Shown: positions 21,201-27,200 of the stretch, piece after piece
Numbering within the stretch: the first letter of the stretch is position 1
Layout of the letters: every line of letters starts with the position of its first letter
Assembly: GCA_963737655.1 (NCBI GenBank)
Contig: CAVTTN010000002.1
Location: 1,472,001-1,536,000 of the forward strand
DNA from: an uncultured Planctomycetota bacterium
Lineage (GTDB): Bacteria > Planctomycetota > Planctomycetia > Isosphaerales > Isosphaeraceae
DNA: 64,000 nucleotides
Reading direction: 5' to 3'
Made by a program: the position numbers

Positions 21201-24200
21201 GCCTCCTCGGGCCGGGAGCCGCGCTCGTAGAGGGCGCCCAGCGTGGCTCGGCTCTCGAGCGTCACCGGGTCGTCGGGCCCGAGCCTCGCGTCCATCCTCG
21301 GCGGCAGCCCCTCGTACAGGGCGATGGCCCGGTCGATGCGGCCCGCCAGGCCGGTGGCCATGGCGAGCTCGTCGGCGCACCGGAGCGCCTCGGGGTCGTC
21401 GGCGCCGAGGAGGGCGGCGAGGGCGTCTCGGGCCCGGGCCAGCACCCGGGTCGCCTCCTCGTAGTGGGCCAGCCCGCGCTGCGATCGCCCCAGCTTCGCC
21501 AGCATCCGGGCCGCGGCGAGCGGGTCGCCCGTGGCCTCGGCATCGACCTCCGAGGCCGCCCGGTCCAGCCGGTCGCCCAGGATCGCCGCCAGCGGCTTGC
21601 CCTCCGTCTCGGCCAGGTCCGGGTCCAGGTCCTCGAAGACCGAGCCGAGGATGTCGTTCATCGTCGCCACCTGCGCCAGCCGCCTCTCGGCCCGCTGGCG
21701 CTCCCTCCTCGCCTCGATCAGGCCCCAGGTCGTGCCGATGACGCCGGCGACCATCGCCACGATCACCAGCGACGCCGCCACGACCCGCCCCCGGTTCCGC
21801 CGGACGAACTTCCGGAGCCGATACGCCGCCGTCGGCGGGCCCGCCGAGACCGGCTCGTGGTTGAGGAACCGCTCGACGTCGTTGGCCAGCCCGACCGCCG
21901 AGTCGTACCTCCGGTCCCGCTCCTTGGCCAAGGCCTTCATGACGATCCAGTCCAGATCCCCCCGGACCAGCCGCGAGAGCCTCGCCGGCTCGATGTGGCG
22001 ATTCGCCGCGACGCTGGGTCGCCCCGCCGAGCTGCTGATCCGGCTCGACGGCACCGGCGGCTCGACCTCGCGGATGGAGCGGAGCATCTCCTCCAGGGCC
22101 GCCCGCCTCATCGTCTCGCGAGTGATCGGCGTCGAGCCGGTCAGGAGCTCGTAGAGGATCACGCCCAGGGCGTAGATGTCGGCCCGGGTGTCCACGTCCA
22201 GCGCGTTGAACGTGGCCTGCTCCGGCGCCATGTACAGAGGAGTCCCCGCGACGCTGCCGAAGGCCGTGAACAGCGAGTGCTCCGAGAGCTGCATCCCGCT
22301 GGTGGCTTTCGCGAGGCCGAAGTCGATCACCTTGGGCACGGGCTTGTCGTCGTGCGATTCGACCAGGATGTTCGTGGGCTTCAAATCGCGGTGGATGATC
22401 CCTTTTTGATGGGCATGCTGCACCGCCGAGCAGATCTGGCGGAACAGAGACAGCCGGGCCGGGAGGTCCAGCCGGTGGTCGTCGCAATACTGGGTCAGGG
22501 GGACGCCCTTGACCAGCTCCATCACGAAGAACGGGCGGCCGTCGGCCGTCGATCCGGCATCGAGGACCCGGGCGATGTTGGGGTGATCCATCAGCGCGAG
22601 GGCCTGGCGCTCGCTCTCGAACCGGGCGAGGACCTGGCGGGAGTCCATCCCCGGCTTGATCAGCTTCAGCGCGACCTGCCTCTTGACCGGGCGGAGCTGC
22701 TCGGCGAGGAAGACGGTGCCCATCCCGCCCTCGCCGATGCTCTGGCGGATCTTGTACCGGTCGGCGATCACGGAGTTCAGGAGGCCGGCGGCGTCGGGGT
22801 CGTGGTAGCTGAGGGTGGGGCCCTCGGGGTCGGTCCGAGCCGGAGACGGCGCGATGTCGACGGTGGCCTGCGGTCCGGTATCGACGGTGGCCCCGGGGTC
22901 GTCGTCGCCCAGGGGCCGCTCCAGGGCGGCGGGCGGGTCGTCGAACGCGGCGAGGAGGGCGTCGAGACGATGACGCAACTCGGCGTCCCCGCCGATCTCG
23001 GCGTCGAGGAACGCCCGGCGATCGGCCCGGTCGTCCTTCTCGATGGCCTTCTGGAATAACGCCTTGACGCGGACGGGGTCGGTCGCCATGAGCGGGCCTC
23101 TCCAGAAGAGGTGGTTTCCCCTCATGGCGTCGAGTCTCCGCGAAGAGTCTCAAATCGGGAAGGGGATGGCCTCTCCCAAATTTCACCACAAAGCCACGAA
23201 GGGCACGAAGGCAGACACAAAGAATCGAGTGATTCTCTCTTCCTTTGTGTCTGCCTTCGTGCCCTTCGTGGCTTTGTGGTGAATCCGAAGGACTACACCA
23301 GGCAAGCCAGCCTCTCCGATCCGGCTTCCGATTCCGCGTCGGCAAGCTCGCCACAGGCGGCCCCGGGGTCGTCCCGGTGGTGGAGGAGGTGCCCCTGGAT
23401 CTCGGCCGGGGTCCGCCCCGACCACGTCTCGGCGAACCCGTCGGCCCGCGACTCCTCGCCCGGGAAGAACCGGAGGAACAGCCGGCGGGCGACCGCGAAA
23501 TCGGCCGGGCCGAACCGGACCTCGCGATCAATCCGGCCCTTGCGGACCAGGGCCGGAGGCAGGTTCTCCGGGTGGTTGGCCGTCATCACGAGGATGCGGC
23601 CCTCGCCGGCGCCGAGGCCGTCCAGGGCGTTCAAGAGCACGTCCAGCGGCACCTGCTCCTCCTCGGGCCGGTCGAAGTGGCGGTCCACGTCTTCGAGGAC
23701 GAGGATCGCCCGCTCCGGGACGCACCGGAGGAGGTCCACCAGCCGATCCACCTCCGTCCGGGTGAACCCCGAGAGCGACAGCAACGCCAGGTCCAGCCCG
23801 AACTTCGCGGCCAGGGCCGAGACCGCCGTGGTCTTGCCCGTCCCCGGGCTCCCGGAGAACATCAGGCCGAGCCGATACGGCACCTGCCGGGCCTCGTACC
23901 ACGATCGGCCGTCCAGGAACGCGCCGACCTCTCCCAGGAGCGACTCGAGGATGCCATCGCGGAGGATCACCGAATCCGGAGTGCGGACCCTCGCCCGCCC
24001 CACGGGCGTCCAGCTCGAATAATCGGGCTCGAAGACCACGGCGCGGGGGTCGTCGGCCGGCAGGGCGGAATCGCGGGCGTCTTCCAGGAGGCCGCGGACG
24101 AACCCCCGGTCGAACGTCAGGGCCCGGAGGCTGATGACCTCCCGGGTCGCCAGCCGTTCCAACGGGCTCTCGCTCGTCGGCTGCTCTCGCGAGACGGCCA

Positions 24201-27200
24201 CGATCACCCCCCGATGGCGGATCCAGTGCGTCCCGTCCCCGGCCGTCAGGCGAATCCCCGGGCGCTCTCGTCGCGAGGAGGCGCCACCGTCCCCGCCGGG
24301 CTCGCCCGGGGCCGCCACCCTCCTCGCCACGTCGGCGCGGAGCTGGCCGCCTCGGCGGACGTCCGGATGGGTCGCCAGCCACGCCTCGACCCAGCCGAAG
24401 ACCTCCGAGTCCGACCTCACCTCGACCAGGACCGTCCACCTCCGCAACGCGGCCGACCACAGCCGGTTCGGGAGCTGCCGGGCCATCGCCACCAGCATCC
24501 CCAACGCCCCCAGGACCAGCCCCCCCGAAAGGAACGTGTTGCCCTCCAGGGCCGTTCGGATCGATTCGACAAGATGAAGACTCATGACCAACCCCCTCCG
24601 GGGCCACCCATCCCGATCGGTCCGCAAACCCCCCTCCGGACCATCCGATCCGAGCGGGGCGGACCCTCAGGACACCTCACCCCCCCGCCTCGGTTCGCCC
24701 GTTTCGGACGATCCGTCGAGCTTCGGTCGCGATAGTATACAAAATTCGACTACGTGCCGTCAACCCGCAACCCTTTGACACCCGGCCCGCCCCCGGCCAC
24801 GATGGGGCGGCCTGGGCTGATCGCCGTCTTTCTCGAACCCGAGCGATTCCATCATGTTCACCAGCGAACCGCCCCTCTCGCAGAGGATCGAGCGGATGAT
24901 CGAGCGGACGCCGATCGTCGATCCTCACACCCACATCCGCTGCGACCGCCCGAGCGCCCCGGACCTGGCGTCCCTGATGAGCTATCACTGGGTCAAGACC
25001 GAGTTGCTCGCCGTGGGGATGCCCGAGGCGGACCTCGACCCGGCCTTGCCCCCGGATGAGCGAGTCCGCCGGTCGATCCCGTTCCTCCGCCGGATGAGGA
25101 ACACGGCGATGGCCTGGTGCTTCTACCGGATCTTGCGGGATTTGTACGACTTCCACGACCCCCACATCACCGAGTCCAACTATCGGGAGATCTGCGACAA
25201 GGTCGAGGCCAGCGGCAAGGACCCGCAATGGCCCCTCCGCGTCCTCCGGGACCGCTGCAACGTCCGATGGGTCGTCACCAGCCTCGGCAACAAGAGCGCC
25301 GACGAGTCGAAGAACCCGGATTTCGTCTCGTTCATGCTCGACGCCCATTACCTGTTCTGCCCGGGGGTCGCCACCGACCTGGAGCCGTTCTTCGTCGGCC
25401 GGACGCGGAAGGCGGAGTACGGGAACGCGCTGTTTACGCTTCTTGGGAACGAATGGCCGACGTCCAGTGAGCGGATGGAGCGGGTGGTGGGCGAATGGCT
25501 CGACCGGACCGTCACCGGCAAGACCACCTTCACCAACACCTTCATCCCGATCGAGCAACGGTTCGGCCCCATCGACGAGTCCCGCGTCTCGGCCGCGCTC
25601 AACCGAGGGCCGGGCGACCCGGACATGGCCGATGCGGACGTGGACGCCCTCTCCCGGTTCGTCTCCCGGGCGGTCTTGCGGTGGCATCACGACCATAAAA
25701 AAGCGGTGCAGATCGCCGTGGGGGCCGAGTACTTCATCTGCGACGGCAAGAGCATCCCCAGGTTCCAGGAGACCTGGACGAGCGAGATGGCCCGGTCGTT
25801 CCACGAGTTCCGGGCGCGAGGTTCGACCTCATGATGGCCTCGGACGTCCTCTCGCACGAGGTCGCCGTCCTGGCCCGGCAGTTCCCGAACGTGTATGCCT
25901 CGGGCTACTGGTGGCACAACTTCTTCCCGATCACGATCGAGAAGATCGTCGGCCTCCGGACCCAGGTCGCGCCGATGGCGAAGTGGTCGGGATTCCTGTG
26001 CGACGCCTATTACGTCGAATGGACCTACGGCAAGCTCCAGGTGGTCAAGAAGGCGATGGCCGCGGCGCTGGCGAGGCTGGTGGAGGCGGGGTTCTCCGAG
26101 GAGGAAGACCTCCCGCCTCTCCTCCGGCAAGTCCTCCACGACACCCCGAGGGACCTCTACGACCTGCCGATCGCGTCGGGTGCATGACATGCCCCGCCTT
26201 CGCTCTCCAACCTCCCGGCTCCCGACGGTGGCGGTGATCGTCCCCACGCTGAACGAGGCGGGCACGATCGAGGCATGCTTGAGGAACCTCGCCGCCCAGG
26301 AAGCCGACGAGGTCGTGGTCGTCGATGCCGACAGCCCCGACGGCACGGCCGACCTCGCGCGATCGTGCGGGGCCCGGGTCCTCCGCTCGTCTCGGGGCCG
26401 AGGCGCCGAGCAGAACGAGGGGGCCCGGGCCTCGTCGTCCGAGATCCTCCTGTTCCTCCACGCCGACGGCCGGCTCGACCCCGGGGCGATCGCCTCCCTC
26501 CGCAGGTACGCCGCCCGCCACCCCAAGATCCCGGGCGGATGCTTCCGGATGAGGGTCGAGGCCCCCGACCCGGCCTTCCGGCTGATCGACGCCTCGGCGC
26601 ACCTGAGGGCCGGAATCCTGGGCATCCCCTACGGAGACCAGGGGATCTTCGCCCGCCGAACCGCATTCCAGGCCGTCGGAGGCTTCCCCGAGATCCGCCT
26701 GATGGACGACGCGATCCTCGCCCTCCGGCTCCGAAGGCTCGGCCGTCTCGCGCTGCTCTCGCCCACGATCCACGCCTCGCCCCGGAGATGGAAGGCGAAA
26801 GGGCTGATCCGCCAGACCCTCCTCAACTGGGCCCTGACGGCCCTCGCCACCCTCGGAACCCCGCCAGACCGCCTGGCCCGGTTCTATGAGGCGGTGCGGT
26901 GAGCGGGGGATCGGTGTCCACAGGTCATGTGCTGCATGCTCAGATGAACCGAGAACACAAATTTTCCCCATTGCGACGCAATGACCTAATTAGACCTTAA
27001 CTCGGCCGCTTCATCCCGCAAGTCCGGCATGAATTCGGTTTTTTTCAGCTTGACAAGGGGGGGGCAGCGGCTAAGGTCTCGCTCGCTTGAAGGCGGTCAT
27101 GGATGGCCGGGCCTCCCGCAGAGGCGTCGGCCGGGAAAATTGCCACCTTCGAGCGGCGTTTCAGGCGTTGGCCGAATTGATCGCCCATTGATCCAAACCC

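Follow-up and report, generated by a model that had tools for sequence, protein, structure and literature searches.

A full-length homologue of mitochondrial Bcs1 on a planctomycete chromosome, and its relatives in phages and bacteria

Background

The Tat translocase transports folded proteins over the energised membrane, a role that has been taken over in mitochondria by Bcs1. Recent reviews portray Bcs1 as the Tat replacement of mitochondrial evolution (PMC13673990; PMC12219900). The window analysed here, a stretch of 64,000 nucleotides from the chromosome of an uncultured planctomycete, encodes a Bcs1-type protein in a genome that hosts a tatA-like gene (contig position 109,379) and tatC as well. 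Which job such a protein may have in a bacterium, and how its gene came to be there, are the questions raised by this locus.

The gene and its surroundings

The gene (P0001) spans positions 23293..24585 on the minus strand and encodes a Bcs1-family AAA ATPase of 430 aa, as indicated by ORF, phmmer, Pfam and an AF2 model. The ORF reads from an ATG at 24585 to 23293 and has no internal stops. Compared with 611 called genes, codon usage is host-like (CAI, 36th percentile; GC3, 0.91) and the gene sits 1.5 Mb into a contig of 7.6 Mb; contamination is thereby excluded. A sigma-70-like promoter (TTGACG-18-TATACT, 24734..24763, minus strand) is located about 150 bp 5' of the start codon. It is a consensus match only, at 10 of 12 positions, found once against 0.1 expected in shuffled sequence. 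The gene is kept on the chromosome and probably expressed.

A palindromic repeat of about 100 bp (23182..23283, no strand assigned), present at 31 loci in the host genome, lies directly downstream, between the gene and a kinase-ECF pair. The repeat is context, outside the protein system. The kinase-ECF pair has been rejected as a partner, because it is a multi-copy planctomycete module and is cut off from the gene by the repeat. No GC step marks a prophage or island at the window, phage genes are missing among the annotated neighbours, and RNA-repair genes flank neither the window copy nor the host-family copies examined. Clustering of ORFs from 80 viral and 57 genome loci revealed no conserved partner; synteny was at the lineage level only, and the window takes no part in it. 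The window copy stands by itself, and none of the genes nearby qualifies as a partner.

Protein architecture

The initial annotation described a full-length Bcs1 homologue featuring membrane helix, middle domain, AAA domain and lid, and Pfam, phmmer and the model all agree with this description. The phmmer values against PDB were reproduced (yeast Bcs1, E 3.6e-54 over residues 9-409; mouse, 2.8e-49; YjoB, 4e-18). Pfam BCS1_N (PF08740) scores 92.5 bits, against a gathering cut-off of 28.1, and the whole model is covered by residues 28-206; AAA (70.6 bits) and AAA_lid_BCS1 (PF25426, 40.7 bits) similarly exceed their gathering cut-offs. In structure searches carried out with the AF2 model (122-sequence alignment, pLDDT 92.1), Bcs1 chains are on top (VIA Z 30.9 over 380 residues, spanning 9-422), followed by YjoB (Z 21.3) and by the remaining AAA proteins (19.2 or less). 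The complete Bcs1 architecture is found, as claimed, in a Tat-bearing bacterium, given the Pfam and structure matches and the tat genes mentioned above.

Identity to mitochondrial Bcs1/BCS1L (yeast 6sh3 and 9gsn; mouse 6uko and 8tp1) is about 30% over 400 residues. Helix signature, equivalents of R69 and R81, middle domain, two extra strands, ED Walker B, two arginine fingers, lid and the absence of a threading pore loop are common to both. Unlike mitochondrial Bcs1, the window protein is encoded on a bacterial chromosome, lacks a targeting peptide and the EWR and DDR motifs, and has a polar seal loop; its heptameric ring and its translocation activity are putative.

A single N-terminal membrane helix (residues 17-35; 24481..24537, minus strand) is predicted by a Kyte-Doolittle 19-residue maximum of 1.91 and by the alignment to yeast. 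It carries the signature N-x-F-x-x-G-G, shared with mitochondrial Bcs1. Among the basic residues that follow, R36 and R48 correspond to yeast R69 and R81, the basket arginines, which draw the client into the membrane vestibule. R36 is retained in 6/6 proteins of the clade including the window protein (window clade) and in 143 of 157 unnamed proteins, and yeast R69 is essential (PMC12219900). The predicted topology is N-out, with a cytoplasmic AAA domain. K and R residues are more numerous after the helix than before it in the window clade (6/6), the host-family copies (24/24), viral proteins (56/57) and unnamed proteins (156/157).

The seal-forming middle domain, or BCS1_N (residues 28-206; 23968..24504, minus strand), is defined by PF08740 and the model. 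Two extra beta strands (181-188 and 191-199) precede the AAA core in the model, a feature that a passage of PMC7994207 assigns to Bcs1. The AAA core (residues 241-359; 23509..23865, minus strand), delimited by Pfam and residue checks, features Walker A GSPGTGKT, a Bcs1-type (ED) Walker B LEDVD, sensor-1 N337 and the arginine fingers R348 and R351. K251, E298, N337 and R351 are found in all rows of each group examined, D299 and R348 in nearly all. The aromatic threading motif of pore loop 1, present in 6/6 FtsH controls, is absent from the window protein and occurs in a single one of the 399 family rows; Bcs1 likewise lacks it, as stated in part of PMC7994207. An insertion resembling an intein is located at Walker A in four family proteins. 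A Bcs1-type lid (residues 366-412; 23350..23490, minus strand), detected by PF25426, follows the core.

Distribution of the family

The homologues had been regarded as a small, sporadic group. An exhaustive search identified 1,462 clusters at E<=1e-30, and among the best 150 of these 144 fall outside the mitochondrial clade. The 18 homologues first counted at E<=1e-40 were found again as at least 18, one being a fragment that matches the query at 100% identity, and this number falls far short of the true family. Full-length relatives are hosted by tailed phages, prophages and chromosomes, and the family is large, spreading over phages and several bacterial lineages. In the bacterial genomes surveyed, the gene was found in 39 of 120 from the host's own family, in 3/400 elsewhere in the phylum, in 8/350 of one Rhodobacterales family and, as partial copies, in 2 of 400 sampled alphaproteobacteria. 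It is missing in the three same-genus genomes searched (completeness 71, 77 and 96%). Cultured carriers include Aliiroseovarius, Phaeobacter, Sulfitobacter, Octadecabacter and Paracoccus. None of 257 matching plasmid records covers 80% of the query, and no NCBIfam model matches the window protein at E<=1e-12.

Most viral copies are near full length (61 of the 80 IMG/VR loci kept). One carrier, G533, is a complete tailed phage of 136 kb with an integrase; Terminase_6N gave no matches in 5 viral records, and the G533 terminase was identified with PHROGs. Viral relatives close to the window clade were sought by a single-protein scan, which gave just a 17-residue match, and with profiles of the clade, which yielded no further members in IMG/VR or metagenomes. 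Bcs1 is not new outside mitochondria. Orthologs in jumbo phages have already been reported in part of PMC7824862, and the gene (gp235) of the Caulobacter phage CcrColossus is annotated as 'AAA+ ATPase and BCS1 domain protein'. The jumbo-phage proteins (CcrColossus gp235; PHROG 7485, of unknown function) have the same full-length architecture as the window protein. BCS1 proteins of cultured phages are 22-32% identical to it and belong to other branches. Unlike the jumbo-phage genes, the window gene lies on a chromosome and in no prophage, and its closer relatives are found in uncultured phages and planctomycete chromosomes.

Two distant bcs1 lineages are located in RNA-repair operons. The order rtcB2-prfH-bcs1 is found at Rhodobacterales and Hyphomicrobiales loci, and rtcB-bcs1-rtcA at 3/3 Phycisphaerales-type loci. 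The link is partial: within one Rhodobacterales family (350 genomes), bcs1 follows 2 of 15 prfH genes, and 2 of 8 bcs1 copies adjoin prfH.

Function

We propose, giving the proposal about an even chance, that the protein is a membrane ATPase chamber for a folded client other than a Rieske protein, acting in stress or virus-host conflict. On the model of Bcs1 structures, it would reside in the inner membrane, its AAA ring facing the cytoplasm; the ring would be wide and probably made of seven subunits. A folded client would enter the cytoplasmic chamber and, upon ATP binding, be squeezed through the gate of the middle domain, either into the membrane or to its far side, while staying folded and needing no Tat signal. 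Genomic context suggests that the family moves with phages, in the accessory parts of their genomes, and that several bacterial lineages have each acquired it on their own, in two cases within RNA-repair operons; the window copy may derive from one such uptake. Because of this travel, the independent uptakes and the RNA-repair operons, one would expect a client that is damaged, toxic or linked to conflict, and that is removed from the cytoplasm or placed in the membrane, rather than a respiratory subunit.

A doubtful, though serious, competitor is a membrane-tethered chaperone or remodeller similar to YjoB, binding folded or misfolded clients (ribosome-rescue products or membrane complexes, for example) in its chamber near the membrane and letting them go on the side where they entered, so that nothing is translocated. 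Bacillus subtilis YjoB (7w42), described in parts of PMC9565160 as a soluble, substrate-specific hexameric chaperone devoid of a membrane helix, has a similar N-domain fold, an ED Walker B and a chamber-type AAA ring. Operons with PrfH, RtcB2 and RtcA fit such a role, as does the polar, variable seal loop (residues 134-148). The loop has the mitochondrial length (15) but T, E and S are found where mouse has the seal residues M121, M123 and V124, and the bulky hydrophobic fraction is 0.16 vs 0.27 in mitochondrial Bcs1. A tight gate is required for keeping the proton gradient, and with polar seal residues such a gate is not evident. In contrast to YjoB, however, the window protein features a predicted membrane helix, whose signature is conserved, along with the basket arginines R36 and R48, in most groups; sequence similarity to YjoB is limited to the AAA domain (residues 206-364), and similarity to Bcs1 is far higher (E 1e-54 vs 1e-18).

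Parts of PMC7824862 propose that phage Bcs1 acts in membrane-proximal head assembly or in loading folded proteins into capsids, in which case bacterial copies would be captured passengers. This is unlikely. In 106 annotated neighbours, out of 218 candidates, structural genes are found near 7 of 37 viral loci, but DNA, RNA or nucleotide-metabolism genes near 22 of 37, and the head module of G533 is about 80 kb distant from the gene. Moreover, 24 host-family copies, 53-100% identical, are intact in unrelated chromosomal contexts, which implies a host function. Nor is the window gene likely to be a former phage gene drifting in decay, a reading with quite a low probability. The protein deviates at 9 of 55 strongly conserved columns, being among the 5 most deviant of 122, its end branch is long (0.79) and the gene is missing in all same-genus genomes searched; still, ORF and catalytic residues are intact, codon use is host-like and a promoter-like site is present. 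Clade mates deviate to a similar extent, at 6-9 columns, which makes the deviation partly a trait of the whole clade.

That the protein backs up or replaces Tat for Rieske proteins, as in mitochondria, is very improbable, despite the same architecture and the presence in the host of two Rieske-cytochrome b clusters. EWR is found in 22/35 eukaryotic rows and in none of the window clade (0/6), the host family (0/24) and Rhodobacterales (0/19). DDR, found in 27/35 eukaryotic rows, is similarly missing in the window clade (0/6), the host family and Rhodobacterales. At these positions the window protein reads S-W-T and V-D-R, only D280-R281 being kept. Both complex-III Rieske proteins of the host carry twin-arginine (RR) motifs, and are probably exported by Tat, unlike in mitochondria. 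Tat is unrelated to Bcs1 and coexists with it, TatC being encoded by the host and by 10/10 carriers tested (11/11 genomes in all). Complex-III clusters adjoin none of the carrier loci examined. The loss of EWR and of the hydrophobic seal, together with the Tat motifs of the host Rieske proteins, indicates that the protein is no Tat substitute, and no evidence favours a Tat-like role for Rieske proteins. The client of the window protein would differ from the Rieske protein.

Phylogeny and origin

In a careful tree, the window protein falls in a prokaryotic clade (100/95), separate from the mitochondrial clade (99/99). Contamination, or a recent acquisition of the gene from a eukaryote, is hardly credible: pairing of window and eukaryotes is not rejected on a quick-search tree (AU p 0.40), but is rejected on the careful one (p 0.043), identity is 40-42% to the best prokaryotic-type proteins vs 30-33% to eukaryotes, a targeting peptide is absent and codon use is host-like. 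The window protein is almost certainly a member of the prokaryotic/phage branch of the Bcs1 family.

Chromosomal copies of the host family do not form a single clade (rejected, AU p 8e-6), and the common host-family copy has as sister a copy from a phage-like contig (support 100/100). Judged from these sequences, the window copy is an acquisition separate from the common one.

A clade of eukaryotes plus Rhodobacterales is rejected neither on the quick tree (p 0.38) nor on the careful one (p 0.11). Free trees rooted with FtsH nest eukaryotes among phages. Such nesting is not claimed, because the score was 32 log units higher (p 0.81) for a tree in which all others form the sister group of eukaryotes. 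The reservation expressed at the outset about the direction of transfer holds after tree building. Mitochondrial Bcs1 may stem from a phage. Conceivably, though less likely than not, bacteria and phages have a widespread ATP-driven, signal-peptide-independent translocase of folded proteins, parallel to Tat and devoted to stress or virus-host conflict. Mitochondrial Bcs1 would then have been recruited from that pool; it would be neither a mitochondrial invention nor part of the core gene set inherited from the alphaproteobacterial ancestor, in line with the two partial copies among 400 sampled alphaproteobacterial genomes.

Significance

The novelty of the single gene is limited, as phage orthologs are published and BCS1 is already the name given to such proteins in databases. 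Literature on chromosomal bacterial Bcs1 lineages was searched for and none was found; the supplement of PMC7824862, or the RNA-repair survey of Burroughs and Aravind 2016, may list bacterial members or the operon link. A large prokaryotic family in which helix, gate domain and motor are intact and Rieske motifs are absent points to another job, and to an earlier or parallel history. This suggests that the Bcs1 machine has a job outside mitochondria. As cultured carriers exist, the best-studied ATP-driven translocase of folded proteins becomes open to tests in bacteria, as regards the size of its ring, its gate, its cargo and its origin.

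Bcs1 anatomy of the window protein

The ORF at 24585-23293 (minus strand) encodes 430 residues. In PDB sequence searches, yeast Bcs1 aligns with residues 9-409 of the product (E 3.6e-54), followed by mouse Bcs1 (E 2.8e-49). YjoB, described as the nearest solved bacterial relative (PMC9565160), comes next at E 4e-18, with an alignment confined to the AAA domain. The Pfam domains BCS1_N, AAA and AAA_lid_BCS1 each score above their own cut-off. Modelled by AlphaFold on an alignment of 122 rows, the protein reaches a pLDDT of 92, and Bcs1 chains are the model's top structural matches in Foldseek. 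VIA-align ranks Bcs1 first (Z 30.9, 380 residues) over YjoB (21.3) and other AAA proteins (19.2 or less). These results confirm the initial annotation of a Bcs1 homologue in a bacterial genome, and the window protein is a real member of the Bcs1 clade.

The membrane-helix signature is kept. R36 and R48 correspond to yeast R69 and R81, reported as needed for function (PMC12219900). A positive-inside pattern at the helix, found in 6/6 rows of the window clade (the six-protein group around the window protein) and 156/157 unnamed rows (proteins without a named source), would place the motor domain in the cytoplasm. Walker A, ED Walker B, sensor 1 and both arginine fingers are conserved, and two extra beta strands are present in the model. 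The aromatic threading loop, whose lack is described as a Bcs1 trait (PMC7994207), is absent from the window protein and is found in one of 399 family rows versus 6/6 FtsH rows. The favoured reading is a presumed oligomer, an inner-membrane ATPase chamber with a putative gate; it would take up a folded client other than the Rieske protein and insert it in the membrane or pass it to the other side, with use in stress or conflict. A membrane-tethered chaperone performing no translocation is a possible, less probable reading. Intein-like insertions, so labelled from their terminal residues, directly follow the Walker A lysine in the relatives P0045, P0057 and P0147 and at locus L285.

Bcs1-like genes in phages and bacteria

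The group had been regarded as small and sporadic. This did not hold: a word-indexed search gave at least 20 proteins from 8,000 candidates scored, and an exhaustive search gave 1,462 clusters (50% identity) at E<=1e-30, eukaryotic Bcs1 counted in. Of the best 150 clusters, 144 lie outside the mitochondrial clade, two being dropped as identical to viral loci. The other six are the query's own fragment, four eukaryotic or eukaryote-like clusters and one omitted fragment. As most of the 144 lack a named source, their prokaryotic or viral origin is presumed. BCS1_N clusters in the ESM Atlas are mostly from bacteria and tailed phages.

IMG/VR gave 197 relatives, some in giant-virus bins; by our own gene calls, 61 of 80 retained are near full length. 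Of 235 matching records from cultured phages, 25 reach at least 80% query coverage. The complete 136-kb tailed phage G533 has terminase, portal, capsid, tape measure and integrase genes. Besides the Bcs1-like gene it encodes RtcB, a Ro-like protein, RNA ligases and DNA ligases (L223-L229), a neighbourhood common to 13-14 related viral loci.

Each of the three jumbo-phage groups has been described as having Bcs1 orthologs, for which a part in head assembly was suggested (PMC7824862); bacterial members may appear in the supplement of that paper. A BCS1 domain is annotated in CcrColossus gp235, and PHROG 7485 covers the protein. The Bcs1-like genes of phages Tunturi_5 (L164, 2857-4086) and XM05 bear the label 'major head protein', which is probably wrong. 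At 37 viral loci, no fixed partner gene was found among 106 neighbours sampled of 218 candidates. Enzymes of DNA, RNA or nucleotides (methylases, ligases, Ro-like, NAMPT, reductases) occur among the sampled neighbours at 22 of these loci, and structural genes at 7. That the window gene is a passively carried phage assembly factor seems unlikely.

A GTDB scan identified at least 49 near-full-length genes among 80 loci kept, a few of them in prophage-like settings. Carriers include Planctomycetota, Rhodobacterales (several cultured), Burkholderiales, Gallionellaceae, Deinococcales, Armatimonadota and Chamaesiphon. In whole-genome profile searches the gene occurs in 39/120 other genomes of the host's family (Isosphaeraceae), 0/3 of the same genus, 3/400 of the rest of the phylum, 8/350 of one Rhodobacterales family and 2/400 of other alphaproteobacteria, both copies there being partial.

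Two distant bacterial lineages host the gene inside RNA-repair operons (L091, 6182-13225; L095; L096; L122, 3641-10300; L213), in which start and stop codons often abut. One type is rtcB2-prfH-bcs1, with Hen1-Pnkp (rtcB2-prfH-bcs1-hen1-pnkp), RtcR, Ro or NAD-salvage genes close by; the other is rtcB-bcs1-rtcA, also with rtcR (rtcR/rtcB-bcs1-rtcA). PrfH-RtcB has been presented as counteracting effectors that target the ribosome (PMC6514570). The gene is not always tied to RNA repair: in the 350-genome Rhodobacterales-family sample, 2/15 prfH genes and 2/8 bcs1-like copies are adjacent. Isosphaeraceae copies examined stand alone, without RNA-repair neighbours. The closest relative with a handle is the copy in the Isosphaeraceae genome G117 (L203, 2446-9156); it points away from the gene of an EccC-like ATPase of type VII secretion and two small genes, WXG100-like by eye and free of Pfam matches.

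The cited texts of several reviews treat Bcs1 as mitochondrial (PMC13673990, PMC8662606, PMC9251779, PMC6251230, PMC12219900, PMC7994207), and Andalucia is reported as lacking detectable Bcs1 in the text cited (PMC7050145). In full-text searches of openly accessible literature, none of the papers listed dealt with Bcs1 lineages on bacterial chromosomes or with a tie to RNA repair.

Host setting

The window gene lies in the interior of a 7.6-Mb contig. Against 611 genes called along 1.2 Mb, its codon adaptation (36th percentile) and its GC3 (0.91) are unremarkable. A candidate sigma-70-like promoter precedes it (1 match vs 0.1 expected), and no prophage signal was seen around it. Among the matches listed for 40 relatives the gene is missing, though its flanks match there at the DNA level. 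Downstream, a near-perfect REP-like palindrome of ~100 bp (23182-23283; predicted hairpin -86 kcal/mol) belongs to a set of 31 loci in the genome. Beyond it are a Ser/Thr kinase-TPR gene and then an ECF sigma factor (19482-23125, minus strand), a multi-copy planctomycete signalling pair with many paralogs.

Upstream, and divergent from the window gene, is a hydrolase-like gene (24854-26187, plus strand) that relatives also have and that lacks Pfam and NCBIfam matches. Compared with two relatives whose genes are intact (433-437 aa), it has lost one base near 25815, which splits it into frames of 326 and 118 aa. Broken calls occur in two other family genomes as well, and the split may be a long-read indel or mark a pseudogene. 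Of 55 columns under strong conservation the window protein itself deviates at 9, a place in the bottom five of 122 that counts against full function, though its clade mates are similar (6-9). A relic gene is rather improbable.

Loss of Rieske features and presence of Tat

The Rieske-binding EWR motif is found in 22/35 eukaryotic rows, and in 0/6 window clade, 0/24 Isosphaeraceae, 0/19 Rhodobacterales, 2/57 viral and 5/157 unnamed rows. DDR is similarly distributed (27/35, 0/6, 0/24, 0/19, 1/57 and 6/157, respectively). The hydrophobic seal of mitochondrial Bcs1 is also lost. Judged by motifs and the clade tested, the window protein is not one of the mitochondrial Rieske translocases.

TatC and a tatA-like gene bear out the earlier statement that the host has Tat, and TatC is encoded by 10/10 other carriers tested. 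The host has two Rieske-cytochrome b clusters, with RR motifs in their Rieske proteins. A Tat backup is very unlikely. One complex-III Rieske protein (L218, host contig C2, 5590906-5594124) carries an Ala/Pro/Lys-rich N-terminal extension of ~280 residues before the twin-arginine motif.

Phylogeny

Mitochondrial Bcs1 proteins form a single clade (99/99) of fungi, tardigrade, green alga and unnamed metagenome proteins, protists being thinly sampled. The window protein clusters (100/95) with the G117 copy (40% identity) and four unnamed metagenome proteins. The common Isosphaeraceae copy is a separate clade, and a phage-like contig carries its sister (100/100). A single clade for the five sampled chromosomal copies of the family is rejected (p 8e-6); therefore at least two uptakes took place.

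The backbone of the tree is a star. Long-branch and redundant rows were removed from 80 rows, leaving sets of 62 and 46. Grouping of the window protein with eukaryotes is narrowly rejected in the careful 46-row tree (p 0.043) and not in the quick 62-row tree (p 0.40); grouping of eukaryotes with Rhodobacterales is rejected in neither (p 0.11 and 0.38). With FtsH as outgroup, eukaryotes are nested among phages in free trees, but a tree with eukaryotes sister to all others is 32 log units better (p 0.81), and the trees therefore fix no direction of transfer. A recent transfer from a eukaryote is barely credible. The fungal protein P0025 consists of a pair of Bcs1-like units. Some trees, though not all, place it beside Tunturi_5 and a prophage of Acidobacteria (94-97), which may reflect a transfer of its own.

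We give an even chance to the chamber reading, in which a folded client other than the Rieske protein is carried across the membrane or into it during stress or conflict.
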